A stretch of 56,579 nt of DNA from Candidatus Pacearchaeota archaeon (GTDB lineage: Archaea > Nanobdellota > Nanobdellia > Pacearchaeales > GW2011-AR1). The stretch is taken from NCBI GenBank assembly GCA_041648455.1, contig JBAZOZ010000003.1:1-56579 (forward strand), written 5' to 3'. Each line of letters begins with the position of its first letter. The first letter of the stretch is position 1. The position numbers and the translations under genes were made by a program. Below, one piece after another: positions 5,162 through 56,446 of this stretch. The notes under the pieces were generated by a model, which was given only the letters and a program-made list of their open reading frames with translations, did not search any database and was not told the origin of the DNA.

Positions 5162-5201
5162 AAATGCTCGCAACAAGTTACTCTAATAAATTATTCATTA
5201 A

Positions 5202-5250
5202 ACTTCAATCTTGCAAAAGTTGAAGTCCCAGAAAATTTCCTATTTTCTGA
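5202..5250 (-). repeat. PE palindromic element, intergenic copy (PE-g)
   Basis: ACTTCAA..TTGAAGT hairpin followed by CAGAAAAT-TTCCT-ATTTTCTG hairpin, in the same order as the other PE copies. Confidence 0.6.
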
Positions 5251-5285
5251 GTCGCCTTCGGCAGATTAATTCACTTTAAAATACC

Positions 5286-10222: not shown

Positions 10223-10344
10223 ACAGAAAATATGAAAAACAAAAAGTTTTTCATCCCATGGAAATCAAAGATTTCCAAGTCATCCAATTCTCCCGAATTG
10301 GAGACATTCAAAACAAGAAATTTTGAAGGTAGAAAATTTTCTGT
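10223..10344 (+). repeat. Nested palindrome cluster: PE closing stem enclosing four tandem perfect hairpins
   Basis: ACAGAAAAT (10223-10231) pairs with ATTTTCTGT (10336-10344). Inside are ATGAAAAAC/GTTTTTCAT, GGAAATC/GATTTCC, CCAATTC/GAATTGG and TTCAAAA/TTTTGAA. Confidence 0.8.
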
Positions 10345-10369
10345 CCTTTAAACTTCAAAGAAATTCAAA

Positions 10370-10708
10370 GTGAAAAAAAACTCGTGGGTAACAGTCGGAA
10401 TTGTAATTGCAGTAATAATTCTTGCATATTTCTTAATTAATAAACCAAAACCAGAAACTCCTGAAGCAATTACAAAATGCATAGGTGAAAAATCAACATT
10501 GTATGTTCAGCTCGGATGTTCTCATTGCAAAGACCAGGAAGACATGTTTGGAGATAATTTAAAGTATATAAAAATTATTGATTGTTTTTACGAAAGAGAT
10601 AAATGTTTAGAAAAAGAAATTGCAGGAACTCCAACTTGGATAATTAACGGAGAAAAAATAGAAGGGGTTCAAACTATTGAGAAATTAAAAGAGTTAGCAA
10701 ATTGTTAA
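10370..10708 (+). CDS. Membrane-anchored thioredoxin-fold protein (CxxC)
   Basis: N-terminal TM helix, GCSHCKDQ active-site-like motif, GTPTW cis-Pro region. Confidence 0.65.
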   Translation: MKKNSWVTVGIVIAVIILAYFLINKPKPETPEAITKCIGEKSTLYVQLGCSHCKDQEDMFGDNLKYIKIIDCFYERDKCLEKEIAGTPTWIINGEKIEGVQTIEKLKELANC

Positions 10709-24134: not shown

Positions 24135-24911
24135 ATGGGCAAATATTCTCACTCAAAATTATCTGCATTTGAACATTGCAAACTAAAATATAAATTCAAA
24201 TACATCGACAAAATAAAACCAGAAATTGAAAAAACAATAGAAATCCATCTTGGAGAAGTTGTTCACGAAACTTTAGAATGGATTTATAGAAAAGTCATTG
24301 AGAACCAAATTCCTAGCTTGGACAATACACTAAATTTCTTCGCAGAAAAATGGCAGGAAAAATATATTCCGGAAATATTAATTGTAAAAAAAGAGATGAC
24401 CGAAAAAGATTATTTCAGCAAGGGTGTGCAGTTTATATTAGATTATTATATGAAGCATCAGCCGTTTGATGACAATACATTAGAGCTTGAAAAAAAAATA
24501 ATTTTAAAATTAGGAGAACATGAAATTATTGGATTCATCGACCGGCTTGCGTTCAACAAAAAAACAGAAGAATTTGAAATTCACGATTATAAAACATCCA
24601 ACACAATTCCATCAAGAGAAAAAATAGAATCCGACAGGCAACTTGCACTTTACTCAATTGCAATAAAAGAAATTTTCGGCGAAGAAAAAAAAATCTGCCT
24701 GATTTGGCATTACCTTAATTTTGATGAAAAAATATGCTCACGAAGAACAAAAGAACAATTAGAAGAATTAAAAAAAGAAATTGTCTCTGTAATCAATAAA
24801 ATAGAATCTGAAAAAGAATTTCCATATAATAAATCTCCATTATGCAACTGGTGTGAATACAAAAATATATGTCCTGCTTTTCCAAATTCTGCGAGACAAA
24901 AAACTCTTTAA
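24135..24911 (+). CDS. PD-(D/E)XK nuclease with Cas4/AddB-like Fe-S cysteines (stand-alone)
   Basis: N-terminal Cys (FEHCKLKY), IGFIDRL...EIHDYKT nuclease core, C-terminal CNWCEYKNIC. No cas genes or array nearby. Confidence 0.65.
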   Translation: MGKYSHSKLSAFEHCKLKYKFKYIDKIKPEIEKTIEIHLGEVVHETLEWIYRKVIENQIPSLDNTLNFFAEKWQEKYIPEILIVKKEMTEKDYFSKGVQFILDYYMKHQPFDDNTLELEKKIILKLGEHEIIGFIDRLAFNKKTEEFEIHDYKTSNTIPSREKIESDRQLALYSIAIKEIFGEEKKICLIWHYLNFDEKICSRRTKEQLEELKKEIVSVINKIESEKEFPYNKSPLCNWCEYKNICPAFPNSARQKTL

Positions 24912-24995
24912 TCTTTTGTATCGTCCTATTTGCCCGGCGTAGAAAAATTAAAAACCTTTAAATAATCATTTAACTTAATTAAAATATAGAAGAGG

Positions 24996-25676: not shown

Positions 25677-25745
25677 ATCACGAACTTCTTGTATTTTTTA
25701 GAAGTTTGTGAGACAGAAAATTCAATTTTCATTTTCTGTAGTATC
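25677..25745 (-). repeat. PE palindromic element at the gyrA 3' end (PE-a)
   Basis: Both PE hairpins are present. The last gyrA codons DTTENEN and the TGA stop lie in hairpin 1 and its loop. Confidence 0.8.
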
Positions 25746-28244
25746 AACAACTTTTATCAAATCACTGACATAATCGCCTTGCTGAAGTTTGACAACTCTC
25801 ACGCCCTGCGTCGCTCTTCCCATAACTCTTATATTTTCTAAAGAAGTTCTTATCACCATTCCTTTTGCTGTAGTAATTATTATTCCGTCATCGTCATTTA
25901 CAGAAATTGTTGTAACAACGTCGCCAGTTTTTTCTGTAACCTTGACATTAATCACTCCTTTCCCAGCACGAGCAGTTTTTCTATAATCCTCGACGGCGGT
26001 TCTCTTTCCATATCCATTTTTTGTAATTGTTAAAATTGCCTGCGTGTCTAAAACCTCCAAAGAAACAACTTCATCGTCGAAAACTTTCTTGTTTTCTGTA
26101 TCTTTTCCTAATTTAATTCCAGTAACTCCATAACTCGCTCTCCCCATTTCTCTAATTTCCTCTCCGTTAAATCTGATTGCCTGTCCTTTTTTTGTTGCGA
26201 GTAAAACCTCTTGTCCTTTCTTAATAATCTCCACACCAATAAGAGAATCAGAATTATCGTTTGGAAGATTCATTGCCCTAATTCCAGACGCTCGTGGTTT
26301 TGAAAAATGTTTTAATGAAATCTTTTTAACAATTCCTTTTTTCGTAGTCATAAATAAACTTTCTGTAAAATCCTTTACTGAAATAACATTTGTAATTGCC
26401 TCGTCTTTTAGATTAAGAAGATTAATCATTGCTTTCCCCTTGCTGTATCTTTCAGCCGCGGGAATTTCATATGCTTTAAGCCACAAAACTCTTCCTCTCG
26501 AAGTGAAAAACATCAAATAATCGTGCGTTGAACAAGTAATTAATTGTTTTACAAAATCACCTGTCGCAAGATTACTTCCAACCATTCCTCTTCCTCCTCT
26601 TTTCTGCTCTTTATATAAGGCTGTATCTAATCTTTTGCAATATCCCTTGTCGGTAATTGTCACAACAACTTCTTTTTTCTGTACAAGATCTTTTTCTTTT
26701 ATTTCTTTAATATTCTGCAAGATTGTAGTCCTCCTATTATCTCCATATTTTCTTTTTAATTCAGAAACTTCTTTCACAATAATCTTTAAAACTTCTTGAA
26801 TATCCCCTAAAATTTTTTCAAGCTCTACAATCTTATCTTTAAGTTCTTTATTTTCGCTCTTTAATTTATCTTGTTCTAAAGAAGTTAATTGCTGTAATTT
26901 AGTTTCTAAAATTGCATCAGCTTGTTTTTTTGTGAGTTTGAATTTGCTCATCAAAGCTTCCATCGCCTCCATTTTTCCCTTGGATTTTTTAATACTAGAA
27001 ATAACTTCATCTATATTTTTCAAAGCAATTAAAAGTCCCTCGACAATCTCCAATCTTTCCTGCGCTTTTTTTAATTCGAATTTTGAACGATTAGTAATCA
27101 TTAGTTTTCTATGTCTTACATATTCTTCCAAAACATTTTTCAAACTCAAAATTTTTGGCTGCCCCTTAACTAAAGCAAGAAAATTAACATTAAAACTATC
27201 CTGCAATCTTGTATATTTAAAAAGAGAATTTATAATAAATTTAGAATTCGCATCCCTTCGCAATTCGAGAACAATTCTTATTTTTCCTCTTGAAGATTCA
27301 TCTCTTAAATCAGAAACATCTTTTATTTTCTTATCTTGAATAAGGCCGGCAATTTGTTCCACTAAAGTTGATTTGTTAATCATATAAGGAATTTCTGTAA
27401 TAACAACTAATTCTTTATTATTCAATGATTCAGTTGTAACTTTTCCCCGCATAATTAATTTTCCTCTTCCCGTCTTAAATAAATCAACCATATCTCCGCT
27501 GACACTTCCACCCGTCGGGAAATCCGGGCCTTTAACAATTTCTGCGAGCTGTTCAATTGTAATTTCTGGATTTTTAATATAAGAGATAATTGAATCACAA
27601 ACTTCAGATAAATTATATGGTGGAATATTTGTAGCCATACCGACGGCAATTCCGGTCGCGCCATTCAGCATCAAAGCAGGAAGTTTTCCCGGCAAAAGTT
27701 CAGGCTCGGTTAAAGAATTATCAAAATTTGGAGTAAACTTCACCGTTTCTTTTTCAATATCTTCCAGCAATTCCATAGCAATTGGAAATAATTTCGCCTC
27801 GGTGTAACGATAAGCGGCCGGCGGATCTCCGTCGATAGAACCAAAATTTCCCTGACCGAAAATTAAAGGATATCTTAAAGAAAAATCCTGCGCCATTCTT
27901 ACTAAAGCGTCATAAACTGCAGAATCTCCATGCGGATGAAATTTACCAATAACATCTCCAACAATCCTCGCTGATTTTTTTGTCTGTGTTCCGGGCTTAA
28001 GCCCCATTTGCTGCATTGAATATAAAATTCTTCTCTGAACCGGCTTCATCCCATCTTCAATCGACGGAATCGCCCGAGAAACAATCACAGACATTGCATA
28101 ATCAAGATAAGATTTTTTCATCTCTTCAGAAATCTCTGTATTGATAACTCCTTTCTCAGATTTCATTTCTTCATTTTCTTTTTTGCTTTCCTTTTCTTCT
28201 TCAATCTCGTCAATTTCTTCGTTTTGTTTTTCTTCGTCTACCAA
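25722..28244 (-). CDS. gyrA: DNA gyrase subunit A
   Basis: [37 protein letters not shown] active-site Tyr region, C-terminal repeat domain. TTG start is preceded by AGGAGGAGGAG. Confidence 0.9.
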
Positions 28245-28309
28245 TTTCTTGCTCCTCCTCCTGAAATTGGAAGGCTAGAAAATTTCTTATTTTCTTTGTC
28301 GTCAGCCAT
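28238..28309 (-). CDS. Candidate 23-codon upstream ORF overlapping the gyrA start
   Basis: GGAGGT-12 nt-[26 protein letters not shown], with the TAG overlapping TTGGTAG at the gyrA start. Out of frame with gyrA. Confidence 0.3.
28241..28297 (-). repeat. PE-related two-hairpin element forming the gyrA leader (PE-b)
   Basis: AGAAAAT-AAGAA-ATTTTCT hairpin, then CCAATTTC-AGGAGGAGGAGCAA-GAAATTGG. The second stem contains the gyrA TTG start and its loop contains the SD-like sequence. Confidence 0.7.
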
Positions 28310-29360: not shown

Positions 29361-29722
29361 GCTACCTCCTCATCGGAAACTTCTTGATTTCCCCTAGAAG
29401 TTTTCGAGACAGAAAATTTCTTATTTTCTGTATCTTTTTCATCTAAATATTTCATAAATTCATCTTCTGTTAATTCCCTTTCAACAATGTCTTTCCCCTG
29501 CCATTTGCATTTTCTGCATTCCCATTCTTTCGCTCCCTTTCCTTCTTCTCCCGTTAAGACAACACCAACCTCGTCGCTGCCGCACTTTGGACAAATTCTA
29601 AGTCTAAATGTTTTTTCATTTTTGCTTTTTTGCTTTTTTATTCCTTTTGCCTTCTCGTACTCTGCAGGAGAATCGTATCCTTCCAAAATCCATGTAGGCG
29701 TTGAGAGTTTATTTTTTGGCAT
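29357..29722 (-). CDS. Zinc-ribbon protein with PE-encoded C-terminal tail
   Basis: CPKCGS...CRKCKW. The last 25 aa, DTENKKFSVSKTSRGNQEVSDEEVA, come from a PE copy. Confidence 0.55.
   Translation of the reverse strand: MPKNKLSTPTWILEGYDSPAEYEKAKGIKKQKSKNEKTFRLRICPKCGSDEVGVVLTGEEGKGAKEWECRKCKWQGKDIVERELTEDEFMKYLDEKDTENKKFSVSKTSRGNQEVSDEEVA
29372..29434 (-). repeat. PE palindromic element, in-frame copy (PE-c)
   Basis: GAGACAGAAAATTTCTTATTTTCTGTATC on the + strand, plus a diverged hairpin 2. Confidence 0.8.
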
Positions 29723-30867: not shown

Positions 30868-32747
30868 ATATCTAAATTAGCCTCCTTTGCATTTTCCTGT
30901 ATAAATTCTTTTCTTAATTGAACATCGTCGCCCATCAACATTGAAAATGTATGATCTGCTTCAACGGCATCTTCTATATAAATTTTTTTTATTTTTCTCG
31001 TCTTAGGATTCATTGTAGTTTCCCAAAGCTGATTCAAACTCATTTCACCAAGACCCTTGAATCGCGTAACATTTCCGCTCGAAGTTCCTAATTTCTCTAA
31101 AGTTTTTTTTAATTCATTATCTGAATAAACATAATAATCTTTATTTTTTCTGATTCTATATAATGGAGGAACAGCAGCATAAACATTTCCGCCTTCAATC
31201 AAATGAGGCATAAATCTAAAAAAGAAAGTCAGTAAAAGAGTTTTAATATGTTCTCCGTCGACATCTGCATCCGTCATAATTACAATTTTGCTGTATCTCA
31301 ATTTCGAAATGTCAAAATCTTCTCCAACTCCGGTTCCAATCACAGTAATTAAATTTGTAATCTCTTCTGATGAAAGCGCTCTGGCAGGACTTGATTTTTC
31401 AACATTAAGAATTTTCCCTTTCAAGGGCAATATCGCCTGAAACTCTTTGTTACGCGCCTGTTTTGCTGAACCCCCCGCACTTTCTCCTTCGACAAGATAT
31501 AATTCTGTGTCATCAGATTTCTTTTTTGAACAATCTGCAAGTTTTCCAGGCAAACCACCGAGGCCAAATGCATTTTTTCTTCTTACAAGATCTTTTGCTT
31601 TTTTTGCAGCCAATCTCGCGTTGGCAGATTCCAATGATTTAGATGTAATTTTTTTAGCAACAATGGGATTCTCCTCAAAAAACTCAGACAACGCACTCGT
31701 CACGATAGAATCAACAAAACCTTTCATTTCAGAATTTCCAAGTTTAGTTTTTGTCTGCCCCTCAAATTGCGGCTCCGCCATTTTTAAACTAATTACAGCA
31801 GTGATTCCTTCCCTGACATCCTCGCCCATCAAATTTCCATCCTTCAGCAAACCTTTTTTCTTTGCATAATCATTTATTACTCTTGTCAGCGCAGTTTTAA
31901 ATCCAGAAACGTGCGTCCCTCCCTCGACGGTATTAATTGTATTTACAAATCCAAAAATATTTTCCTGATATCCAACATTATATTGTATTGAAATTTCAAC
32001 AACAGAATGATCAATCTCTCTCCTGAAATAAATCGGCTTGTGCAAAACTTCTTTTGACTGATTTATCCATTTTACAAATTCAATCAAACCACCAGAATAA
32101 CAAAATTCTTCTTTCTTGTCCTTCGGTTCATCATACAAAACTATTTTCAACCCGGCATTTAAAAACGCAATTTCTCTAAATCTAATTTCCAATAATTTAT
32201 AATCAAAATCTAAAACTGAAAAAATTTCGGGGTCGGGCCAAAAAATTATTTTAGTCCCCGTTTCATTTTCCTTGCACTTTCCAGCAATTTCTAATTTTGT
32301 CTTCGGATTTCCTCTCGAATATTCCTGATGGTAAATTTTCCCTTCATGTTTTATCTCAACAATTAATTTTTTTGACAAAGCATTTACACAAGACATCCCA
32401 ACACCATGCAATCCTCCAGAAACAGCATAGGATTTTTTGTCAAATTTTCCTCCGGCGTGAAGTTTTGTCATAGCTACTTGAACTGCAGGAACTTTGAATT
32501 GCGGATGAATACCAACGGGAATTCCTCTTCCAATATCTTCAACACTGCAACTTCCATCTTTATTCAAAGAAACTGTTATAAGATCTCCAAAACCAGCCAT
32601 GGCCTCGTCGACAGAATTATCTACTGTCTCGTAAACTAAGTGATGCAATCCATCTTTTCCAGTGCTGCCTACATACATCGCCGGACGTTTTCTAACTCCT
32701 TCAAGACCTTCAAGAACCTTTATTGATTCAGCTTTATATTCTTCCAT
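30864..32747 (-). CDS. gyrB: DNA gyrase subunit B
   Basis: GLHHLVYETVDNSVDEA, LHGVG, EGESAGGSAKQARN, PLKGKILNVE, IMTDADVDGEHI. The ATG at 32747 (GGAG 12 nt upstream) is preferred to the track TTG at 32768. Confidence 0.9.
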   Translation of the reverse strand: MEEYKAESIKVLEGLEGVRKRPAMYVGSTGKDGLHHLVYETVDNSVDEAMAGFGDLITVSLNKDGSCSVEDIGRGIPVGIHPQFKVPAVQVAMTKLHAGGKFDKKSYAVSGGLHGVGMSCVNALSKKLIVEIKHEGKIYHQEYSRGNPKTKLEIAGKCKENETGTKIIFWPDPEIFSVLDFDYKLLEIRFREIAFLNAGLKIVLYDEPKDKKEEFCYSGGLIEFVKWINQSKEVLHKPIYFRREIDHSVVEISIQYNVGYQENIFGFVNTINTVEGGTHVSGFKTALTRVINDYAKKKGLLKDGNLMGEDVREGITAVISLKMAEPQFEGQTKTKLGNSEMKGFVDSIVTSALSEFFEENPIVAKKITSKSLESANARLAAKKAKDLVRRKNAFGLGGLPGKLADCSKKKSDDTELYLVEGESAGGSAKQARNKEFQAILPLKGKILNVEKSSPARALSSEEITNLITVIGTGVGEDFDISKLRYSKIVIMTDADVDGEHIKTLLLTFFFRFMPHLIEGGNVYAAVPPLYRIRKNKDYYVYSDNELKKTLEKLGTSSGNVTRFKGLGEMSLNQLWETTMNPKTRKIKKIYIEDAVEADHTFSMLMGDDVQLRKEFIQENAKEANLDI

Positions 32748-32768
32748 TTGTTTATTATTCTCCTGCAA

Positions 32769-32815
32769 ATGGCAGAGTTAAAAATGCTAATTTTTAAATC
32801 GGATTTTTCTGCCAT
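32769..32815 (-). promoter_or_regulatory. Nested palindrome in the gyrB leader
   Basis: ATGGCAGA/TCTGCCAT (8 bp) encloses TTAAAAA/TTTTTAA (7 bp). It contains the ATG of a 31-codon out-of-frame upstream ORF (MAEKSDLK...). Confidence 0.4.
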
Positions 32816-33149
32816 CTTAAAATTAGTCATCTCCCGATATTTTAGTTTAATATAAATTGATTTTACCGTCGAGAAACGGATAATTAACATAGCAACGCAA
32901 AAATAGTTTAAAAACCTTGCCCCAAGAATTTAATATAATTAAGGCTAGAAAACACCAAATTAAAGAAATAAATCCAAAATCCCCCAATACCAAATAATTT
33001 AAATACAAATATCTTGAAAGAAATATGAAAATACAAAAATTTTTAATTTTTGGTCCTTCCAGATGGAAAACAAAGAAATTTTCCATCCCTAAAAATCGGG
33101 AATATTTTAAGGAAACAAGAAGTTTTAGAAGAAATAGGAAGTTTTTAAT

Positions 33150-33869: not shown

Positions 33870-35189
33870 TTATTTTAAATTTTCATAAGCAGATTTTATT
33901 CTCTTCCTTCCTTTTTTATAAGATTCTTTTGAAATATGCTTTTCAGAATATGCTTTTTTCAACACACCCATTCGTACTTTTAATTTTTGTTTAAGTTGTT
34001 CTGTCTCAAATAAATTCTCTTTTTCCCAAGACCTCAGTCTTCTCTCTATATCCTCTTTCTTCCCTTTTTTCTTTAATTCTCTAACCTCCCTATCTTGATT
34101 TTTTCTCTTACTCTGAAAATTCCTAATAAGTTCTCTCTTAATCTTATCCAAATCTTCCATCTCTTTTTTTCTCTTAGAATTATCTTTCAGATTTTTTATG
34201 TTTAATCTAGATTTTTGAATAGCTACTAGATTTCCCTTCAATTCTTTATTCTGCTGTCTTCTAAAATGAACTAGTAAGTCATCCCTTGTCTTAATAAAAT
34301 AAAAAAACAAGATCAAGATTCCAACCAAAAAAAATAATATAACTATCACAAAGAAATTAAAATTATTCGACACAGAAAACTCACCTTTTTTCTCAGATAC
34401 AGAAAATAAATGCCCTGCCGAGGTTTTTGTCCCATTAGAATCTAAATAAGTAATAAAAATATAATTTCCATTAGGAATATCTTTTGGAATATCGATTATT
34501 TTGTTTACTTCTATATTTCCCTTTATAACTAAATTTTCCTCCTCAGATAAAATTATTTCATCGTTTAAACTTTTAATTATATAACTAACATGTGTATTAT
34601 GTAAATCGTTGTTTTCCACATTGTAAATCTTAACTTTCACCCCTAATTTTCCTCCGGGATAAACATCCTCATAATTTTGAATCGTTTCTGTAATAATTGC
34701 AAACTGGCTGTTTTTATCCTCGACACTTAAAATAATTGGAATTCTTTTTTCAGATTTAAGGGAATTTATAACGAGCTGCCCAGAATATATTTTTGCCTCA
34801 CTCTTAGTATCTTTAAAAGAGATTTTAATTTCTTTTGATTCTCCCTCCACTAATTTAAAACTTTCTTCTTCTAGAAAAGCAACATTTTGGAAATTAACAA
34901 GATGGACCTTAAATGTCTGTTCTTCATTTAAATTAGTTATTTTTACAGTAGTCTCTGATGAACCGCCAAAAGAAACACTTAATTTCAAAAGAATTGTATT
35001 AGTATTTATTACAAAATCTTCTTTTTTAAAATTATTCTTCAATACAAAAAATGCAATCAGAATCAAAAAAATAATCCCAATTATCCAAAATTTCTTTTGC
35101 TTCAGAAATTCCAAATTTTTAATCATCTTGAACTCTTCCTGAGTTTGAGAAGTAAAAAATTTCCTATTTTTTTCATCCTCTTTTATCAT
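33870..35189 (-). CDS. Membrane protein with extracellular beta-rich domain and basic coiled-coil tail
   Basis: Two TM segments. The N-terminal EDEKNRKFFTSQTQEEFK is a degenerate PE-encoded peptide. Confidence 0.5.
   Translation of the reverse strand: MIKEDEKNRKFFTSQTQEEFKMIKNLEFLKQKKFWIIGIIFLILIAFFVLKNNFKKEDFVINTNTILLKLSVSFGGSSETTVKITNLNEEQTFKVHLVNFQNVAFLEEESFKLVEGESKEIKISFKDTKSEAKIYSGQLVINSLKSEKRIPIILSVEDKNSQFAIITETIQNYEDVYPGGKLGVKVKIYNVENNDLHNTHVSYIIKSLNDEIILSEEENLVIKGNIEVNKIIDIPKDIPNGNYIFITYLDSNGTKTSAGHLFSVSEKKGEFSVSNNFNFFVIVILFFLVGILILFFYFIKTRDDLLVHFRRQQNKELKGNLVAIQKSRLNIKNLKDNSKRKKEMEDLDKIKRELIRNFQSKRKNQDREVRELKKKGKKEDIERRLRSWEKENLFETEQLKQKLKVRMGVLKKAYSEKHISKESYKKGRKRIKSAYENLK
35127..35180 (-). 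repeat. PE palindromic element, degenerate in-frame copy (PE-h)
   Basis: CTGAGTTTGAGAAGTAAAAAATTTCCTATTTTTTTCATC aligns with the PE core, with a deletion. Confidence 0.5.
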
Positions 35190-41800: not shown

Positions 41801-42715
41801 GGAACTTGAACTCTTCGACGACGAAGTTTCAGTTGATGGTGTTTCACTAGTTTCTCCTGTTATCGCTGAAGTTGCGGTTGTTTCTTCGGGATGGGTGGTT
41901 GAGGTGTCGGATGGCGGGATTGTTGGCTCTTCTGTTAAGATTTCTTCCGTCGGTGTTTCAGTTGTTTCAGGGGTTTCCGTTGGAACATCGCTTGGTTGTT
42001 CTTGAGGAGTTTCTGTTTCGTTTGTTTCAGAAGCTGTTTCATTAGTTTCTCCTATAATTTCTTCCGCAGTTTTATTTTCATCTTTTGTTTTATCCTTGTC
42101 TTCTATAGAAGTTTTGTTTGATTCTATATCTTCAACTTTTTTATCATAAATATTTAAAATAAAAGAAATAGGAATTAACACGAAGCCGTAACCTTCTCCA
42201 CTTCCAGAAATATCTTTTCCAGTTACATAATAATTACCAGAACTAACTTTTTCGTTAATCAATTCTCTTAAAAAATATTCATAAGAATTATTGTTTAAAT
42301 TAATCAAAACTTTTGTATTAGAAGGAATAAATTCATCTTTTTCCAAAACAACTTTCATGTTTCCTTCTAATCTTTCATTACTAGAATAAATATCTTTAAT
42401 ATTTAACGACACTTTTCCAGTTAAATTAAAATTAACAAAAAACAAACTAGTAATAAGAAGAAAACCAATTATCCCAAAGATAAAAAATAATTTTAAAGTC
42501 TTATTTAAATTAAACTCATGAAGTTTGTGAGAAAGAAAATTTTTCCCAGTATTGGTTTTAGTTACAGCACCAATTTTCTTCGAATTAGAAATATATCTCG
42601 TCCTAGTTCGCCCTTTTTTATCTCTATAACTTTCGTAATAATAAGGACCAAAAACCTTGGTTCTGCCAGCTACCCTCTTTTTAACATACCTCTTATAAAC
42701 CATCAATAAAAACAC
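35858..42715 (-). CDS. Giant (2285 aa) surface protein: N-terminal anchor, T/S/E/P-rich linker, LamG-like domain, repeated Ig-like modules, C-terminal TM
   Basis: TM helices near both ends. LamG-like block YWNADADN...WYHITATY...LDEVMMFN (about nt 39640-40250). Very many N-x-S/T sequons. GGGGTGGGTGGGGGGGGT run. Confidence 0.8.
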   Translation of the reverse strand: MFLLMVYKRYVKKRVAGRTKVFGPYYYESYRDKKGRTRTRYISNSKKIGAVTKTNTGKNFLSHKLHEFNLNKTLKLFFIFGIIGFLLITSLFFVNFNLTGKVSLNIKDIYSSNERLEGNMKVVLEKDEFIPSNTKVLINLNNNSYEYFLRELINEKVSSGNYYVTGKDISGSGEGYGFVLIPISFILNIYDKKVEDIESNKTSIEDKDKTKDENKTAEEIIGETNETASETNETETPQEQPSDVPTETPETTETPTEEILTEEPTIPPSDTSTTHPEETTATSAITGETSETPSTETSSSKSSSSPSSGESSSSDSGSSESIASSGESSSITGAIVKNIFGFFSNVFLSMTGRVSMELKDEVSGSVSLNNPFNYILREGQTASIKEGSVNTGNEGDVKLEIKDNTAIVTTGYTNQSERKIIIDFTKLNIPVEEGDLIVSFIYENVTLAEDSNKVKIQNASILNETEILNGTVETIQHKAVVGKPVKWIKRIVLNQEGLVNISIPESAGSVRVINSITNDTMRAEVISNTGEVQNVLSIIGNVISDLFVEQNVKQNTKEVVINENATEFEIEYETPAPVSVEENISGGKRIIISGPDELGYTNIIAFSELPYEISASSIKLYHWDNGSKILISTNNYDLNNNSLIDYIEWNVPHLSNQSYLLIIEISKAEHLDENRTFIEDISDSVKAQDGNWSPVINDSHYVRVTFEQNLTKDNDITVYAKTLNNETGNIDVYLLNWNESIARIENISSEGYYKTYLTGLGDNSEDEFDLKINSLNGIEFDYIVDPIIIVGDTSYNSVDVNVTQETGFAHLNITTLAPYNKLIGYWNADADNVSASTAFDLSEKGNNGVIGATANTTTGGIYGQAYGFNGAATSQIDAGTSDVVNIYNKNFTIMGWVKARDLAGWVPFFNKDSGGVQFWVGYATNPLFLLSSDGSAYTTVTGSSTMSTNVWYHITATYNSTTGVIYLNGEKNGSATFASPLYNGSGSKLMLGYSEKWNNLYSGLLDEVMMFNTTLNTSQILDIYNNQSARFSNYGNQTFGVNLSSAGTENTVNITLTNYQQLLGSNISVSINGAKPINFSGTKIINQYNFTGDPNNVSVSFLYSAGTNKFYSPFMIGNVTLDSYTLGGGGGDTTPPTISIIIPVNNSNTSNINQDVNYSASDASGLSSCWWTNNTGISNHTINDCATNITGQSWYEGINNITIYINDTAGNNNTANVRFYVDSIQPAIAIVTPVNNSNSSNINLDVNYTVSTDAQTCWWTNSSGINNKTITCGTNITGQTWFEGINNITIYVNDSVNNLNSSSVKFVVDTIAPTFIQLPPNITIVVGNAVGSDINATDSGVGVQAYKVNDTINFKINNSGFLENATALAVNFYLLNISVNDSVGNMNSSLMFVNVTLDYEYPLFSSSTSRPAEPATYQQGQNYTFNITISSTNATAGIEFNRVNYSASNLTKDRFNVTFQNLGVNNYTYYFWAYGNGTSHNYNISNSYSYNVSIATQTATLTINETSPIIYRTNINVTCNGNFLLRDNVNVNATENGLTKLLGGGTYIYSCQKLENQNYSYDDDNSTLVVNKFNQHTYTLLNGVNANLSVIYPQQINVSVSQNETATTIKLNGTSLTNGLNYTIGAGVWNVNVSAVETQNYSSNETHWYVEINQSTQTITTLLNGVAGNLSRIYPQPANVTVSGNSTTATINVNGTTFASGYNYTLGSNVWFVNVTATENQNYSKNNTYWNIEVNKTLSEVNLSLNSTEGNITLTNGATALLNGTLITGDAGNLLQLFRNRTQINQKTREVSNVSTFNQIFNFNITIIYSASQNYTQSSETYWLNVSESPDIIPPNISISYPTNNSNTSNINIDVNYSVSGDAQACYWTNNSGINNHTISCAINLTGMSWFEGANNVTIYANDSVNNLNSSSVRFIVDTVYPTFSNFLDNSGSLTDSGTAWFNASINSTNGTAILTFNGINYTATNLTTNVYNVSLSVASSGTYSYFWNSYGNGTLHNYNSSATRNYVVNAGGGGGTGGGTGGGGGGGGTAAPVIIKPQFDVSSSSYQKTIALGKIESDSITVTNNAFEEKTFTIEVEDINNIISVEQSSFKISAGDSKDLKFRIIAPADTGIYTGRIIVTSGASSAEILVNINVKTEKSLFDVSLAIPKELKILSSGQNIKAQIDLLQMGVKEKIDVTINYLIKNFNGQTVFTESETFSVTDQKSYVKELDTSKLSPGDYVFGAELIYSDGVAVASSQFKIKEEGIKGRDKMLTILVLALLIISITIGLAIRRNKIMIKSVRGK
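36945..37232 (-). repeat. Third copy of the ~90-aa repeat module
   Basis: IIPPNISISYPTNNSNTSNINIDVNYS...CYWTNNSG...VTIYANDSVNN...FIVDTVYPTF. Confidence 0.8.
38775..39320 (-). repeat. Two tandem ~90-aa repeat modules inside the giant gene
   Basis: PPTISIIIPVNNSNTSNINQDVNYS...CWWTNNTG...ITIYINDTAGN...FYVDS, then IQPAIAIVTPVNNSNSSNINLDVNYT...CWWTNSSG...ITIYVNDSVNN...FVVDT. Confidence 0.8.
42515..42556 (-). repeat. PE palindromic element, partial in-frame copy (PE-i)
   Basis: GAAGTTTGTGAGAAAGAAAATTTTT on the + strand encodes TGKNFLSHKLHE between the basic N-terminus and the first TM helix. Confidence 0.5.
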
Positions 42716-43907: not shown

Positions 43908-44210
43908 TTATTTCAATCCAGCAATATCTTTATCAGCGTCGCCAGCGACAACAATTGCAACTGAAGATGCTTTAACAGAAATACCGACGGCAAGTCCTAA
44001 TTTTTGTTTGCTGTCAACTTCAACACATTTAATTCCTTTTTCTTTACAAAGAAAAGGCAAGTGCTGAACAATTTCTTTCGGCTCGACGTCTGCAGCATAA
44101 ACTACAAGCTTCGCTTCTCCTCTCTCAATTGCTTTTGTAACTTCGTTTGTTCCTTTCTCAATCTTTCCGGACTTTCTCGCTTTCTCAACAATTTTGTAAA
44201 TGTCTGTCAT
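43908..44210 (-). CDS. rpl7ae: Ribosomal protein L7Ae (K-turn binding)
   Basis: [37 protein letters not shown]. Confidence 0.85.
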
Positions 44211-44232
44211 CTTAAAAATTTCCCGTTTTTAA

Positions 44233-44264
44233 CGAGACAGAAAATTTTCCTGATTTTCTGTATC
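44233..44264 (-). repeat. PE hairpin-1 copy in the rpl7ae leader (PE-d)
   Basis: GAGACAGAAAATTTTCCTGATTTTCTGTATC on the + strand, 23-54 nt upstream of the L7Ae ATG. Confidence 0.7.
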
Positions 44265-44380
44265 TTTAATTTTTCCTAAATTTAATGAATTAAACGAAGA
44301 ATAATATCCTCGCCTAAGCTCATTGGATAAAAAAGAATGATAAAATTAGTTTTTAAATGTTTGGATAAATTATTTATTCT

Positions 44381-46793: not shown

Positions 46794-48104
46794 TCATTTC
46801 CACCCAACAATCACGTCATCAGTTCTTTCCCTCGGCAAGATATCCACCTTATCAATCTCTTTTCCTTGAAATTTTATTCCTGCTAAGAACATAATTTCTC
46901 CGAGATAAGCAATCATCGCCCCATTATCAACAAGCAAATCCCGAGAAGGAACAAAAAACTTGCATCCTCTTTCCTCACACATAATTTTGCACATCTCCTG
47001 CAAACGAGAATTGCATGCAACCCCGCCACCCAAAAGTAATTCTTTTTTTCCAGTATGCGCCAGCGCTCTCTCGGCAGTTTCAACAAGCATTGCAAAAACA
47101 GTTTCTTGAAGAGAAAAAGCAAGATCTTCTATTGTGTAATTAACTTCAGAATTTTCTTTGCGTAATTTGTCTCGTTCATTTTCATTCACTCGAAATTTTT
47201 TTGAATTGTTAATATAATTTATCGGAACTTTATCATTATTATCAAAGCATCTAAAATTTTTATCCTTCTCATTTTTTTTAAGCGAAAAATCTAACGTAAT
47301 CGATTTTGAGTCAATAACATCACGAACTCCTTGAGTTCCTGGAGTTTGTGAGACAGAAAATTTCTTATTTTCCGTATCACGAGCATTTTGCGAGTGCAAT
47401 TTTTCAATCAATTGTTTCAATTTAGTCTGGATTCCAGAAAAAGCAACATCCATTCCCTTCACTTTGTAAGGAAGCTCTATATAACCAACGAAATCTTGAG
47501 TTCCCGATTTCGTGGCGCCAAAATTTTTCGCAGAAAAATTTTTAGCGTTTTTATCTGAATTTTCTGCTAATTTTTGTATTGCAGGACCTCCGGGAAAACC
47601 CAATCCAAAAAATCTCGCGATAGTATCAATGAAATTACCTACGCCAATATCTAAAGTTTCTCCAAAAACTCTGTACTTTCCCGACGCATATGCAATAACT
47701 TGCGTATTCGCTCCAGAACAATAAAGCAGAACAGGATCTTTCGCTCCAGTAATTTTTCCAATTTCCAAGTGAGCAACACAATGATTAACTCCAACTACTG
47801 GCTTACTTAATTTTTTAGAAAGTTCTTTTGCAAATTTCATTCCTTCAAGCAAACACGGAGCAAGTCCAGGACCTTGTGAAAAAGCAATCGCATCGATTTG
47901 TTTCTCGTAGATGTTTGCCTTTTCCAATGCCTCAAGATAAATTTTATCTGCAACTCCCCGATGATGTTTCGCACTTTCCGTAGGAATTATTCCTCCACTT
48001 TCTGTTGTATACATATCTCTAACATTCGCTAAAATCTTTTGATTGCTGACAATTCCAATTCCAAAAGTATGTGCTGTTGATTCTATTCCCAAAATAATTG
48101 ACAT
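46794..48104 (-). CDS. kae1: Kae1 (tRNA N6-adenosine threonylcarbamoyltransferase) with two internal insertions
   Basis: GVNHCVAHLE, FSQGPGL, GGGVACNSRL, DNGAMIA. 436 aa against roughly 330 aa for canonical Kae1. Confidence 0.9.
   Translation of the reverse strand: MSIILGIESTAHTFGIGIVSNQKILANVRDMYTTESGGIIPTESAKHHRGVADKIYLEALEKANIYEKQIDAIAFSQGPGLAPCLLEGMKFAKELSKKLSKPVVGVNHCVAHLEIGKITGAKDPVLLYCSGANTQVIAYASGKYRVFGETLDIGVGNFIDTIARFFGLGFPGGPAIQKLAENSDKNAKNFSAKNFGATKSGTQDFVGYIELPYKVKGMDVAFSGIQTKLKQLIEKLHSQNARDTENKKFSVSQTPGTQGVRDVIDSKSITLDFSLKKNEKDKNFRCFDNNDKVPINYINNSKKFRVNENERDKLRKENSEVNYTIEDLAFSLQETVFAMLVETAERALAHTGKKELLLGGGVACNSRLQEMCKIMCEERGCKFFVPSRDLLVDNGAMIAYLGEIMFLAGIKFQGKEIDKVDILPRERTDDVIVGWK
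47319..47378 (-). repeat. PE palindromic element, in-frame copy in Kae1 (PE-e)
   Basis: Encodes DTENKKFSVSQTPGTQGVRD (aa 243-262). 54 of 60 nt are identical to the copy at 49563-49622. Confidence 0.9.
47488..47567 (-). repeat. Degenerate second PE copy in Kae1 (PE-e2)
   Basis: ACGAAATCTTGAGTTCC...GCAGAAAAATTT...GAATTTTCTGC encodes KNFSAKNFGATKSGTQDFVG. Confidence 0.55.
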
Positions 48105-49247: not shown

Positions 49248-49652
49248 TTAGCGAGCCAATATATTTATAATTTTTTTATATTTCTCATTAAATGGTATTT
49301 CAATTAATTTAACAAAACGTTTTTTTGGCCTTATGCACAATTTCCATGGCTTAATTTTCCTAATTTCTATAACTTTATTTTTATCGTCAAGCCAAACAGC
49401 AATAAACTCTTTACAAAAAAAAGAATGTATTGACGTTTTTGTTGGTTTTTTAAAAATAAAAACAAGAGCGTCAGTATCTTCTTTTCTAAACATCAATCCT
49501 CTAAATTTTTTCCATGGAGAATTGCATACTTCTGCTTCCAATTCAGTTTTTTTCCCTCGGAAATCACGAACTTCTTGTGTTCCTGAAGTTTGTGAGACAG
49601 AAAATTTCCTATTTTCTGTATTAAAAGAAATTCTTTGATTCGTTTTCACCAT
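49248..49652 (-). CDS. DUF192-family protein with PE-encoded N-terminal segment
   Basis: FRGLMFRKE...ALVFIF...IAVWLDDKNKVIEI is a DUF192-like core. aa 11-30, NTENRKFSVSQTSGTQEVRD, come from PE. Confidence 0.55.
   Translation of the reverse strand: MVKTNQRISFNTENRKFSVSQTSGTQEVRDFRGKKTELEAEVCNSPWKKFRGLMFRKEDTDALVFIFKKPTKTSIHSFFCKEFIAVWLDDKNKVIEIRKIKPWKLCIRPKKRFVKLIEIPFNEKYKKIINILAR
49563..49622 (-). repeat. PE palindromic element, best-preserved in-frame copy (PE-f)
   Basis: + strand: ATCACGAACTTCTTGTGTTCCTGAAGTTTGTGAGACAGAAAATTTCCTATTTTCTGTATT. Confidence 0.9.
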
Positions 49653-56322: not shown

Positions 56323-56446
56323 GAGCCTGTAGCTCAGCCAGGTTAGAGCACTGCTCTTATATGAGCTCAATCGATTAAGGTTGATTCTCTCTTGATAAAA
56401 ACTCTAAGAGAGGCAGGGGTCCACAGTTCAAATCTGTGCAGGCTCA
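56323..56446 (+). tRNA. tRNA-Ile(UAU): tRNA-Ile (anticodon UAU) with a 49-nt intron at the canonical 37/38 position
   Basis: Acceptor GAGCCTG/CAGGCTC, D arm GCTC..GAGC, anticodon stem CTGCT/GGCAG, loop CT-TAT-A, intron 56362-56410, T arm CACAG-TTCAAAT-CTGTG, discriminator A, no encoded CCA. Confidence 0.75.

Follow-up and report, generated by a model that had tools for sequence, protein, structure and literature searches.

Small palindromic elements, a candidate mobile family, within and between genes of a Pacearchaeota archaeon and other DPANN archaea

The Rickettsia palindromic elements RPE-1 to RPE-10 (Ogata et al. 2000; Claverie & Ogata 2003) are summarized in PMC10969869 and PMC1779305, and the length given in the latter summary is 100-150 bp. 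Correia/NEMIS, ERIC, BOX and RUP repeats are co-transcribed with their neighbors, can carry regulatory signals and occasionally form in-frame fusions (PMC10969869). For DPANN archaea, a bulk census of MITEs records a high density in one Woesearchaeal genome and no more (PMC11602168). Our literature search found no earlier description for DPANN of an element like the one reported here, and a sequence-only reading of the same DNA had likewise known of no equivalent.

The window analyzed here is a whole stretch of 56,579 nucleotides from Candidatus Pacearchaeota archaeon (contig JBAZOZ010000003.1). It carries multiple copies of a short two-hairpin repeat. The repeat probably belongs to a family of mobile palindromes, small and non-autonomous, that is restricted to DPANN archaea of the Pacearchaeota type and RPE-like in behavior.

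The repeat and its fold

Covariance model (CM) R1, run with filters off over the 56.6-kb window at a cut-off of E<0.01, gives 12 matches with E-values down to 4e-14. Ten are on the minus strand (29372-29434, 49563-49622, 47319-47378, 25677-25742, 44209-44264, 35125-35177, 5201-5253, 28237-28298, 32739-32800 and 24857-24922) and two are on the plus strand (10229-10281 and 10310-10371). The same type of search finds 0 copies in 57.7 kb from syntenic relatives. These counts confirm the earlier proposal of a multi-locus palindromic repeat of ~60 nt. With blastn-short, 47319-47378, 29372-29434 and 25677-25722 are recovered at E<=4e-8, besides partial copies. The consensus aligns to 49563-49622 (minus strand) with 2 mismatches and has no match in 100 shuffles, and ACAGAAAAT together with its reverse complement occurs 15 times in the window, against 1.9 expected from dinucleotide shuffles (maximum 7); the shuffled background suggested as a check thus speaks for the repeat. 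The gyrB leader copy (32739-32800), the copy at 24857-24922 and a GyrA remnant (26079-26102) were first found in this follow-up. A copy assigned earlier to the giant surface protein (42515-42556) has to be dropped, with E=0.8 and conservation of the region at the protein level in ortholog L102.

The consensus core runs (G/A)AT-ACAGAAAAT-loop-ATTTTCTGT-CTC, after which come a second hairpin, with TC...GA as its closing pairs, and a final T. This core spans 51-63 nt, and coding copies have lengths of 51, 57, 60 or 63 nt. A long form of ~110-130 nt adds a third hairpin on the 5' side, and a composite 108-nt version is seen repeatedly in unrelated proteins. The unit length of 60 nt read earlier applies to the copy in the zinc-ribbon protein; the Kae1 and DUF192 copies measure 57 nt (19 codons), because one flanking (G/A)AT is target sequence.

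Both hairpins fold as originally drawn. Hairpin 1 is almost invariant between copies. The hairpin-2 region has a minimum free energy of -7.15, whereas shuffles reach -3.2 and control windows -3.7, and double changes are found at 7 of its 9 inner pairs (45 cells versus 12.6±2.9, a value reached by 0 of 500 shuffles). Compensatory change is maintaining the hairpin structure. The wobble pairs conflict on which strand is functional, with an A·C on the sense strand of hairpin 2 and a G·T on the sense strand of hairpin 1 in the Kae1 copy. The element ends, (GAT)ACAGAAAAT... and ...GAAGTTCGTGAT, show no complementarity to each other; each pairs within its own internal hairpin, and there are no terminal inverted repeats. 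An Rfam search of the window and of loci L007, L010 and L030 matches no family to the element.

Coding copies specify a hydrophilic peptide of the TENKKFSVSQTSGTQEVRD type, and the peptide TENKKFSVSQ is repeated in frame across many proteins. A tryptic peptide predicted from translated copies is, for example, FSVSQTSGTQEVR. A search for homologous proteins with a 41-aa tandem element peptide gave no candidates, and a 32-aa peptide from the window has a sole match among protein representatives, the unrelated repeat protein P0121.

Copies in genes and leaders of the window

Three copies on the minus strand lie in frame within genes, as had been proposed, and orthologs have clean empty sites for each. 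The DUF192 copy (49563..49619, 57 nt, CM 77.6 bits) is near the N-terminus, in the context ISFN[TENRKFSVSQTSGTQEVRD]FRGKK. Orthologs L034 and L036 have an empty site here and ortholog L139 has the element at the same site, where the shared element is identical at 53 of 57 nt, versus 69% for the host gene. The zinc-ribbon copy (29372..29431, 60 nt, CM 77.6 bits) is situated four codons ahead of the stop, so that the protein ends YLDEKD[TENKKFSVSKTSRGNQEVSD]EEVA* versus YLDDKG-EEVA* in L034. We considered whether the DUF192 and zinc-ribbon copies could be leaders that are merely read through by ORF calling, and rejected this because the true N- and C-termini of the orthologs flank the insert.

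The third, Kae1 site B (47319..47375, 57 nt, CM 73.3 bits), falls between residues 205 and 208 of P. abyssi 2IVN in the PDB alignment, and Kae1 of L002 supplies the empty site at the nucleotide level, GCTAGTGAT|ATTGTT. The segment containing it (Kae1 residues 245-320) has AF2 pLDDT<50. When this copy is compared with the DUF192 copy, 6 of 60 nt differ, exactly as counted before. A further in-frame insertion on the same strand, site A (47484..47546, 63 nt), lies between 2IVN residues 184 and 185, has pLDDT<50 at residues 186-206 and is missing from L002 and 17 other Kae1 sequences. The degenerate copy previously placed at 47488-47567 is therefore a true 63-nt insertion relative to orthologs; its likeness to the element is weak (CM E=0.26), and it is at best a degenerate copy. 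Mapping onto the solved Kae1 structure, which the sequence-only reading had suggested, places the inserted segments between contiguous residues; in the AF2 model these segments have pLDDT<50.

The gyrase genes have four minus-strand copies or remnants. At the 3' end of gyrA, a 63-nt copy (25677..25739) is called by both blastn-short and the CM (25677-25742). Its enlarged hairpin-1 loop brings a premature stop (VVDTTENEN*), and the former tail NVIVEE* persists downstream; L034 GyrA reads on through ...KVPEHEVINGNGNGEEGK*, and the element is thus the source of the last codons and stop, as supposed. A 24-nt hairpin-1 remnant, GATACAGAAAACAAGAAAGTTTTC, is in frame in the GyrA C-terminal domain (26079..26102), giving GIKLGK[DTENKKVF]DDEVV versus GIKLRSG-DEVV in L034. 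At the 5' end, a diverged 62-nt copy (28239..28300, CM E=9e-5) directly follows the original ATG (28309) and is out of frame, so that gyrA now starts at 28244, after GGAGGAGGAG in the hairpin-2 loop. The same region of L034 is ATGGCAAAAGACGAAGAA, without an insert. What had been read as a copy in the gyrA leader (28241-28297) is consequently a significant copy that is not in-frame coding, but it sits after the original ATG. The fourth is a diverged gyrB leader copy (32739..32800, CM E=0.003) that has the gyrB ATG (32747) in its hairpin-2 3' arm.

Other copies are non-coding or probably so. The rpl7ae leader copy, as previously noted, is directly upstream of the gene on the minus strand (44209..44264, CM E=3e-7), and its terminal AT forms part of the ATG at 44210. 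The rpl7ae leaders of L034 and L035 lack the element, and the close relative L057 has one. A diverged copy in a membrane-protein gene (35125..35177, minus strand, CM E=3e-5) had been taken for N-terminal coding sequence (35127-35180). Since it terminates ...TTCAAGAT|G on the second Met (35126), it is probably a 5' leader instead. The copy 3' of a radical-SAM gene, also anticipated, lies antisense to that gene on the minus strand (5201..5253, CM E=5e-5) and has a different hairpin-2 stem, ACTTCAAC/TTGAAGT. Another diverged minus-strand copy (24857..24922, CM E=0.005) lies antisense to a plus-strand ORF and overlaps its 3' end. Upstream of a thioredoxin-like gene, two adjacent diverged copies occur on the plus strand (10229-10281 and 10310-10371, CM E=3.5e-4 and 2.4e-3) in a stretch with extra hairpins (10229..10371), and TTCAAAGTG closes the second of them, at the GTG start codon. 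The element is thus present where one copy had been placed (10223-10344), and the pair is the better reading of it; a terminal inverted repeat enclosing 104 nt at these positions was likewise discarded because the two adjacent copies fit better.

Relatives and junctions

An exact search for hairpin 1 in 185,579 species genomes gives 30 matches, 22 of which are in Pacearchaeota, Woesearchaeota or Nanoarchaeota MAGs, and several DPANN genomes have 2-3 exact matches each. More than 116 metagenome stretches, chiefly from groundwater or sediment, also have a match. Host proteins are unrelated: Pfam assigns tRNA nucleotidyltransferase (CCA enzyme), PP-loop ATPase, DHHA1, Dus, L30, MetRS, Glu/GlnRS and a Cys-rich domain protein, and NifS, PHP and Kae1 were identified by eye. 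Sense copies within genes are in frame 0 in 15 of 16 cases. Reciprocal empty sites occur for the Cys-rich protein (L114, L118) and the CCA enzyme (L040, L117), and none was found for Dus, NifS or PHP among the relatives' loci examined. A search of IMG/VR for viral carriage gave one chance-like terminator match.

The majority of copies in relatives are non-coding, and their commonest context is the translation start. Leader copies there end ...GAT|G on the start codon, have a Shine-Dalgarno (SD)-like hairpin-2 loop and in many cases a further hairpin on the 5' side, and the genes 3' of them include P1, S8, L23, EF-1alpha, S19e and L14. For 22 of 58 copies, an ORF of 50 codons or more begins with an ATG made up of the terminal AT plus G. 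The purine-rich hairpin-2 loop is positioned 5-13 nt upstream of the start, as a Shine-Dalgarno sequence would be, and an SD-like motif is present in 34 of 49 leader copies (69%) versus 20% of random 25-mers; near window genes generally the figure is 27% versus 20%, which is no enrichment. An upstream ORF that ends at an ATGA overlapping the real start is seen in just 17 of 50 leader copies, and such coupling was rejected as a universal feature. Docking on start codons (at least 38% of copies) may mean a function beyond tolerance. One subfamily is found upstream of L23 in four genomes; this subfamily, and the conservation of the DUF192 copy above that of its host gene, fit selection or gene conversion equally well as recent mobility.

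New copies follow immediately after an AT dinucleotide, and the element's own end is (G)AT: xAT forms the 5' flank of 108 among 123 copies, and 58 of 76 have GAT as their 3' end. At start codons this terminal AT rebuilds the ATG. AT is the sole sequence common to all junctions, with no consistent longer target-site duplication, and a 3-nt GAT duplication was rejected because AAT, TAT or CAT is as frequent as GAT in the 5' flank. A minority of copies have flanking repeats of 10-22 nt, and some targets, such as the Kae1 empty site, resembled the element 3' end already before insertion, so simple cut-and-paste fails to explain the junctions. Hairpin-2 arms in the NifS, PHP and Dus copies match host sequence. 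The 927 kb of relatives' DNA covered (parts of genomes) revealed neither a cognate IS nor a transposase. A tblastn search of the same DNA with an IS608 TnpA query is a weak test and gave nothing credible; its single weak match is ribosomal protein L1.

Explanations and known systems

Spread at the DNA level rather than a shared domain, as was argued from the first copies, is supported by the empty sites in Kae1 (L002), DUF192 (L034, L036), the zinc-ribbon protein and GyrA (both L034). It is also supported by the non-coding copies, the out-of-frame gyrA 5' copy, the compensation in hairpin 2, the lack of copies in syntenic relatives and the in-frame copies in unrelated proteins of other DPANN genomes. 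An ancient peptide motif or domain could account for TENKKFSVSQ recurring in frame across many proteins, and chance likeness might arise in AT-rich low-complexity DNA, but these readings deserve practically no credence: the empty sites of close orthologs and the non-coding copies have already refuted them. Out-of-frame copies and a nucleotide identity of the element above that of its host genes also oppose a motif, and chance is opposed by the shuffles without matches, the word count (15 versus 1.9) and CM E-values down to 4e-14. It is very improbable that the repeats are spliced from RNA, as bulge-helix-bulge or other mini-introns, and leave the proteins unaffected. The elements are strongly structured and this genome has an archaeal intron, of 50 nt in the tRNA at 56323-56446; however, both hairpins are local, and by inspection the Kae1 and DUF192 exon flanks cannot pair as helix-bulge-helix across the junctions. 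Intragenic copies are also nearly all multiples of 3, stop-free and in a single frame, a pattern expected solely under translation, and the frame-breaking gyrA 5' copy is accompanied by a new gene start.

A functional cis-acting RNA module, either a portable 5' leader and initiation region or an mRNA-stabilizing hairpin pair for highly expressed genes, would be kept by selection and spread by recombination, with intragenic copies as accidental by-products. The start codon as the commonest site in relatives, the ribosomal-protein and elongation-factor genes behind leader copies, the enrichment of SD-like loops at SD distance (69% versus 20% background), the hairpin-2 covariation, the one variant ahead of L23 in four genomes and the ATGA overlap in 17 of 50 copies all favor such a module. 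We nevertheless consider it unlikely, given that syntenic relatives have L7Ae, DUF192 and gyrA/B genes entirely without the element, that window genes show no general SD enrichment (27% versus 20%), that copies lie antisense at 3' ends (5201, 24857) and within at least 15 unrelated coding regions, and that genome-specific subfamilies and nested composites suggest proliferation over conserved regulation. Distinctly doubtful is a novel type of homology-guided, possibly transposase-free mobile module that prefers the AT|G of start codons as its docking site, arrives with a ribosome-binding hairpin and has been co-opted as a portable translation-initiation cassette. Its hairpin-2 5' arm, or the element 3' end, would pick targets by base pairing or microhomology, which would account for flanks like the element 3' end and for the hairpin-2 arms that match NifS, PHP and Dus, and DPANN hosts would have co-opted it for strongly expressed genes, ribosomal ones among them.

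If the repeats are mobile elements, as we think probable, they may be mobilized in trans by a putative enzyme that recognizes the invariant hairpin 1, or they could move by template switching at microhomology that is promoted by the hairpins. The observed placement is confined to sense frame 0 in protein loops and termini, the AT|G of starts and other intergenic DNA, and this restriction might reflect selection for harmless sites. Coding copies would be translated. Proteins that would gain 19-20 residues from the element are Kae1, GyrA, aminoacyl-tRNA synthetases, Dus, the CCA enzyme and L30, and the element is a concrete source for many insertions and differences in length that had no explanation in DPANN proteins. 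It also explains MAG annotation errors, such as spurious small ORFs (FQNLSCAFAQIAIKDFENTEN-type 'genes'), wrong starts, extended N-termini and truncated C-termini, and it is usable as a lineage marker for Pacearchaeota populations. Two features hint at an unusual insertion mechanism: the docking on starts of an element that carries its own SD-like loop, and the likeness between flanks and the 3' end.

Correia/NEMIS, ERIC, BOX and RUP repeats are bounded by terminal inverted repeats and duplicate a defined target (e.g. TA for Correia). Like them, the DPANN element is small, multicopy and hairpin-forming, but its ends are not mutual inverted repeats, as those of such repeats or of a classical MITE are. 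AT alone is common to all of its junctions. Recognition by hairpin rather than by terminal inverted repeat would recall REP/BIME-RAYT and IS200/IS605-derived elements (PATEs in haloarchaea), and the xAT| junction fits the insertion of IS200/IS605 elements beside a short specific sequence without obvious duplication. IS608 recognizes its target through a guide sequence, and some DPANN targets resemble the element 3' end. The DPANN element differs from these in having no GTAG-type tetranucleotide, two unlike hairpins and an often intragenic position, and no Y1 transposase was found in the 927 kb, which is a weak test. It differs from a bulge-helix-bulge intron in its local hairpins, in its strong frame and length constraint and in the lack of cross-junction pairing on inspection of the Kae1 and DUF192 flanks.

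The resemblance to RPEs noted at the outset holds for the palindromic form, the genic and intergenic copies, the in-frame insertions and the lineage-wise proliferation. Both are short interspersed palindromes in reduced genomes, both give unrelated housekeeping proteins a conserved hydrophilic peptide through in-frame copies, and both have proliferated in particular lineages with no associated transposase known. The likeness is one of behavior. The host is a Pacearchaeota-like DPANN archaeon, as its Kae1 and L7Ae show, and not one of the Rickettsiales. The DPANN core of 51-63 nt is shorter than the 100-150 bp of RPEs, a range approached by the long leader form alone (~110-130 nt), and it consists of two or three separate hairpins, the first almost invariant. 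Many DPANN copies dock precisely on start codons with an SD-like loop, and we know of no report of this for RPEs. Small, reduced genomes are common to DPANN archaea and Rickettsia, and the analogy suggests that selfish DNA inside protein-coding genes may have originated independently in two domains.

The two-hairpin repeat and its detection

The proposed repeat is real. Its consensus matches 49563-49622 (- strand) with two mismatches and matched none of 100 dinucleotide-preserving shuffles, and a short-word BLAST with it as query recovers 47319-47378 (E = 1e-20), 29397-29434 and 25677-25722, as well as several partial copies. Counting the 9-mer ACAGAAAAT together with its complement gives 15 occurrences versus 1.9 expected (maximum 7). 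Hairpin 1 followed by a second hairpin, whose stem sequence varies, can be folded at every locus listed in the sequence-only reading. A covariance model (R1) built on an alignment of 28 copies (A2) and run with filters off gives 12 matches at E < 0.01 in the 56.6-kb window, including a gyrB leader copy (32739-32800) and a further copy (24857-24922) that were missing from that list. The membership of two listed copies is unsupported: 42515-42556 (E = 0.8), which lies in a region that is conserved as protein in the ortholog on contig L102, and 47488-47567 (E = 0.26). Run over 57.7 kb of sequence from syntenic close relatives, the same model finds no element. The giant 2285-aa surface protein of the window (35858-42715, - strand) carries Laminin_G_3 in its source annotation and an N-terminal GPYYYESYRDKKG-type module conserved in L102 and L036.

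The TC of the invariant CTC and a GA close hairpin 2, with T as the next base in 58 of 76 copies, and the inner stem varies widely in sequence. Taken with no selection for pairing, the 41 nt that lie 3' of hairpin 1 fold with a mean of -7.15 kcal/mol, compared with -3.2 for shuffles and -3.7 for control windows in the same loci. Both-sided changes occur in seven of the nine inner pairs of hairpin 2 in A2, and the 45 both-sided-change cells compare with 12.6 ± 2.9 in shuffles (0/500); slid controls are also much lower. This result carries two caveats: a helix of 8 bp or more was a condition for entry into A2, and the design of the search itself makes hairpin 1 invariant. No Rfam family matches the element in the window or in contigs L007, L010 and L030 of relatives. 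Elsewhere in the window, Rfam matches (52.9 bits) a tRNA gene with an intron of about 50 nt in its anticodon loop (56323-56446, + strand) that ARAGORN missed.

Insertions within genes

The window encodes archaeal Kae1, L7Ae and GyrA/B among its proteins, and its Kae1 is nearest to proteins source-labelled Candidatus Pacearchaeota or Nanoarchaeota. Relative to the solved P. abyssi Kae1 (2IVN), it has two extra segments that sit exactly between contiguous residues 184|185 and 205|208. Its closest relative (P0002, 82% identity, encoded on contig L002 of the same sample) lacks the first segment and, within the second, precisely the element. In the DNA this shows as a clean 57-nt indel between the window (GCTCGTGAT|ACGG...GTTCGTGAT|GTTATT) and L002 (GCTAGTGAT|ATTGTT). 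The AlphaFold model is mediocre overall (mean pLDDT 65). Much of the core is confident, and pLDDT drops under 50 in each of the two extra segments (residues 186-206 and 245-320), a pattern that fits unstructured surface loops, although a thin alignment would also be expected to lower pLDDT. Across Pacearchaeota, an alignment of Kae1 (A1; window gene 46794-48104, - strand) places a hyper-variable insertion hot spot at site B, with protein lengths of 326-464 aa. Other peptide motifs recur there (NLHSxxxRDIxGSxQ...) and may be further element families.

The DUF192 copy, also described earlier as in frame, is a 57-nt in-frame insertion relative to two orthologs. Their N-termini read MVKKARVGFN-YKGRK (L034) and MKKKRVSLN-YKNRK (L036), and that of the window reads MVKTNQRISFN[TENRKFSVSQTSGTQEVRD]FRGKK; these orthologs rule out a mere leader here. 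The copy in the L139 ortholog is identical at 53 of 57 nt and the remaining gene at 69%. This difference is in part selection bias, and it would fit gene conversion, constraint or recurrent insertion. The DUF192 gene (49248-49652) and a putative phage-type metallopeptidase gene (PF18894, 49621-50019, both - strand) overlap by stop and start, and the pair is kept in L034 and L036.

In the zinc-ribbon protein, a 60-nt insertion lies four codons short of the stop (...YLDEKD[TENKKFSVSKTSRGNQEVSD]EEVA* versus ...YLDDKG-EEVA* in L034). GyrA has undergone three events relative to L034. Its C-terminal domain contains an in-frame 24-nt remnant of hairpin 1 (26079-26102), and at the 3' end the enlarged loop of a 63-nt copy provides a premature stop, 3' of which the old tail remains readable. 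A diverged 62-nt copy, not a multiple of three in length, lies shortly 3' of the original ATG. Its insertion has left behind a short uORF (23 protein letters), and its hairpin-2 loop carries GGAGGAGGAG, with a TTG start 7 nt later. The gyrA gene of the syntenic relative L034 (16396-20271) has a LAGLIDADG intein that the window gene lacks.

A scan for exact hairpin 1 plus CTC in one genome for each of 185,579 species found 30 stretches, 22 of them in Pacearchaeota, Woesearchaeota or Nanoarchaeota MAGs and two or three in several single genomes; the bacterial matches look like chance terminators. At least 116 metagenome stretches also match, largely groundwater and sediment contigs, and IMG/VR viruses give one chance-like match only. 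Among about 130 unique copies, 15 occupy sense frame 0 of long ORFs (TENxxFSVS...), one occupies sense frame 2 and essentially none is antisense. Their hosts by Pfam include tRNA nucleotidyltransferase, PP-loop ATPase, a DHH/DHHA1 protein, dihydrouridine synthase, ribosomal protein L30, MetRS, Glu/GlnRS and a Cys-rich small-domain protein; inspection by eye added NifS, a PHP protein, a further Kae1 and a DUF192 ortholog. The orthologous Cys-rich proteins of L114 and L118 carry the element at differing positions with reciprocal empty sites, as do the CCA enzymes of L040 and L117. A composite 108-nt form with extra nested hairpins (TENRKFSVSQPRKPSVFGAQKSNGFSLTSGTQEVRD) recurs across unrelated proteins. 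Empty sites, unrelated hosts and reciprocal positions therefore rule out a shared protein domain and establish the DNA-level spread that had been proposed. The strong constraint on frame and length argues for translation of the coding copies and against their removal by splicing.

Clusters of short stable hairpins occur in the window at 10223-10371 and 33023-33113 (stems such as GGAAATC/GATTTCC and CCAATTC/GAATTGG), and their modules (e.g., AAAACCTTCGGTTTT) are nested inside elements of other genomes.

Copies at start codons

Most copies in relatives, which the sequence-only reading had not seen, are non-coding and lie immediately 5' of a start codon, where the junction reads ...TTCAAGAT|G or ...TTTAAGAT|G. 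The next base is G in 31 of the 58 copies that have a clean hairpin 2 and then T, and in 22 of these 31 the terminal AT plus G forms the ATG that opens an ORF of 50 or more codons. Downstream genes include those for acidic ribosomal protein P1, S8, L23, L14, S19e, EF-1alpha and a Toprim protein, and one ribosomal-protein operon (L007) has five copies within 8 kb. The leader-type copies in the window are those at the rpl7ae, gyrA, gyrB, thioredoxin and, probably, membrane protein genes.

A third, long 5' hairpin is common in leader copies (TTTCAAAATCT...CTGTGC-CUUC-GCACAG...AGATTTTGAAA), and gene callers translate such copies as spurious small ORFs (FQNLSCAFAQIAIKDFENTEN...). In 34 of 49 leader copies, 4-5 nt that match AGGAGGTGATC are found 3-18 nt (mostly 5-13 nt) upstream of the ATG, usually within the loop or 3' arm of hairpin 2, against a background of 20% in random 25-mers and 27% in window genes. 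In 17 of 50, a uORF runs from the displaced original ATG through the element and ends at or beside the real start, often with an ATGA overlap. Long-form elements create such uORFs (e.g., MKFKN...LR*; L007 3299-3454, 5876-6019 and 6945-7118; L010, L030 and others), which gene callers annotate as small proteins.

A K-turn-like motif (CCAATGA...GGCGAGGA / CCGATGAAC...GTGAGG) upstream of rpl7ae (44307-44326, - strand) is conserved in all three genomes (window, L034 and L035) and is possibly an L7Ae autoregulatory site.

Insertion junctions and the nature of the element

The three bases 5' of ACAG are xAT in 108 of 123 copies and the element ends in (G)AT, and all empty/filled pairs can be explained by insertion immediately 3' of AT, the exact point being ambiguous by 2 nt. 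The element has no terminal inverted repeats, and the junctions do not support a 3-nt target duplication. The 12-15 nt 5' of an element are closer to the 3' end of that element than the corresponding flanks of other copies are (4.96 versus 4.45 matches of 12, permutation p ≈ 0.0006), and 8 of 120 copies have exact flanking repeats of 11 nt or longer versus 0.7% in controls. In NifS (L060, 12/12), PHP (L041) and Dus (L092), the host sequence that is repeated makes up the 3' arm of hairpin 2. Host codons before the element recur at its 3' end in these proteins (IYLD..IYLD, AIFTD..AIFAD and YDLID..FDVVD; L060 ~440-540, L025, L041 and L092/L099). In Kae1, however, the resemblance (11/15) pre-exists in the empty allele, and identical element 3' ends also occur beside unrelated flanks; simple target duplication is therefore unlikely. 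The data suggest instead that the target is chosen by similarity or microhomology. The hairpins could promote template switching, or the target could pair, guide-like, with the 5' arm of hairpin 2. A weak test (tblastn with an IS608 TnpA against 927 kb of retrieved sequence) gave no transposase candidate. The descriptive claims carry high confidence, and any specific mechanism of transposition carries low confidence.

A selfish, non-autonomous palindromic element is the best-supported interpretation. Surviving copies would then be the harmless ones, either frame-0, stop-free, hydrophilic inserts in loops and tails or copies that rebuild the start codon and provide a Shine-Dalgarno-like signal. 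For copies at start codons, the hypothesis of a functional leader module is a serious if partial rival, but it leaves unexplained the element-free syntenic relatives, the antisense 3' copies and the intragenic spread.

The element resembles Rickettsia palindromic elements (RPEs; PMC1779305, PMC10969869) in behaviour, as the earlier reading had noted. It differs from them in host and size, and presumably in sequence. Its lack of terminal inverted repeats, and of any apparent target-site duplication of fixed length, sets it apart from a classical MITE; it is probably not a REP/RAYT element, and it is not a BHB intron. Full-text literature searches gave no account of such elements in DPANN archaea; a bulk census reports a high MITE density in one Woesearchaeal genome and no more (PMC11602168). 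The element represents an archaeal, much shorter, multi-hairpin analogue of RPEs with a distinctive docking at start codons.
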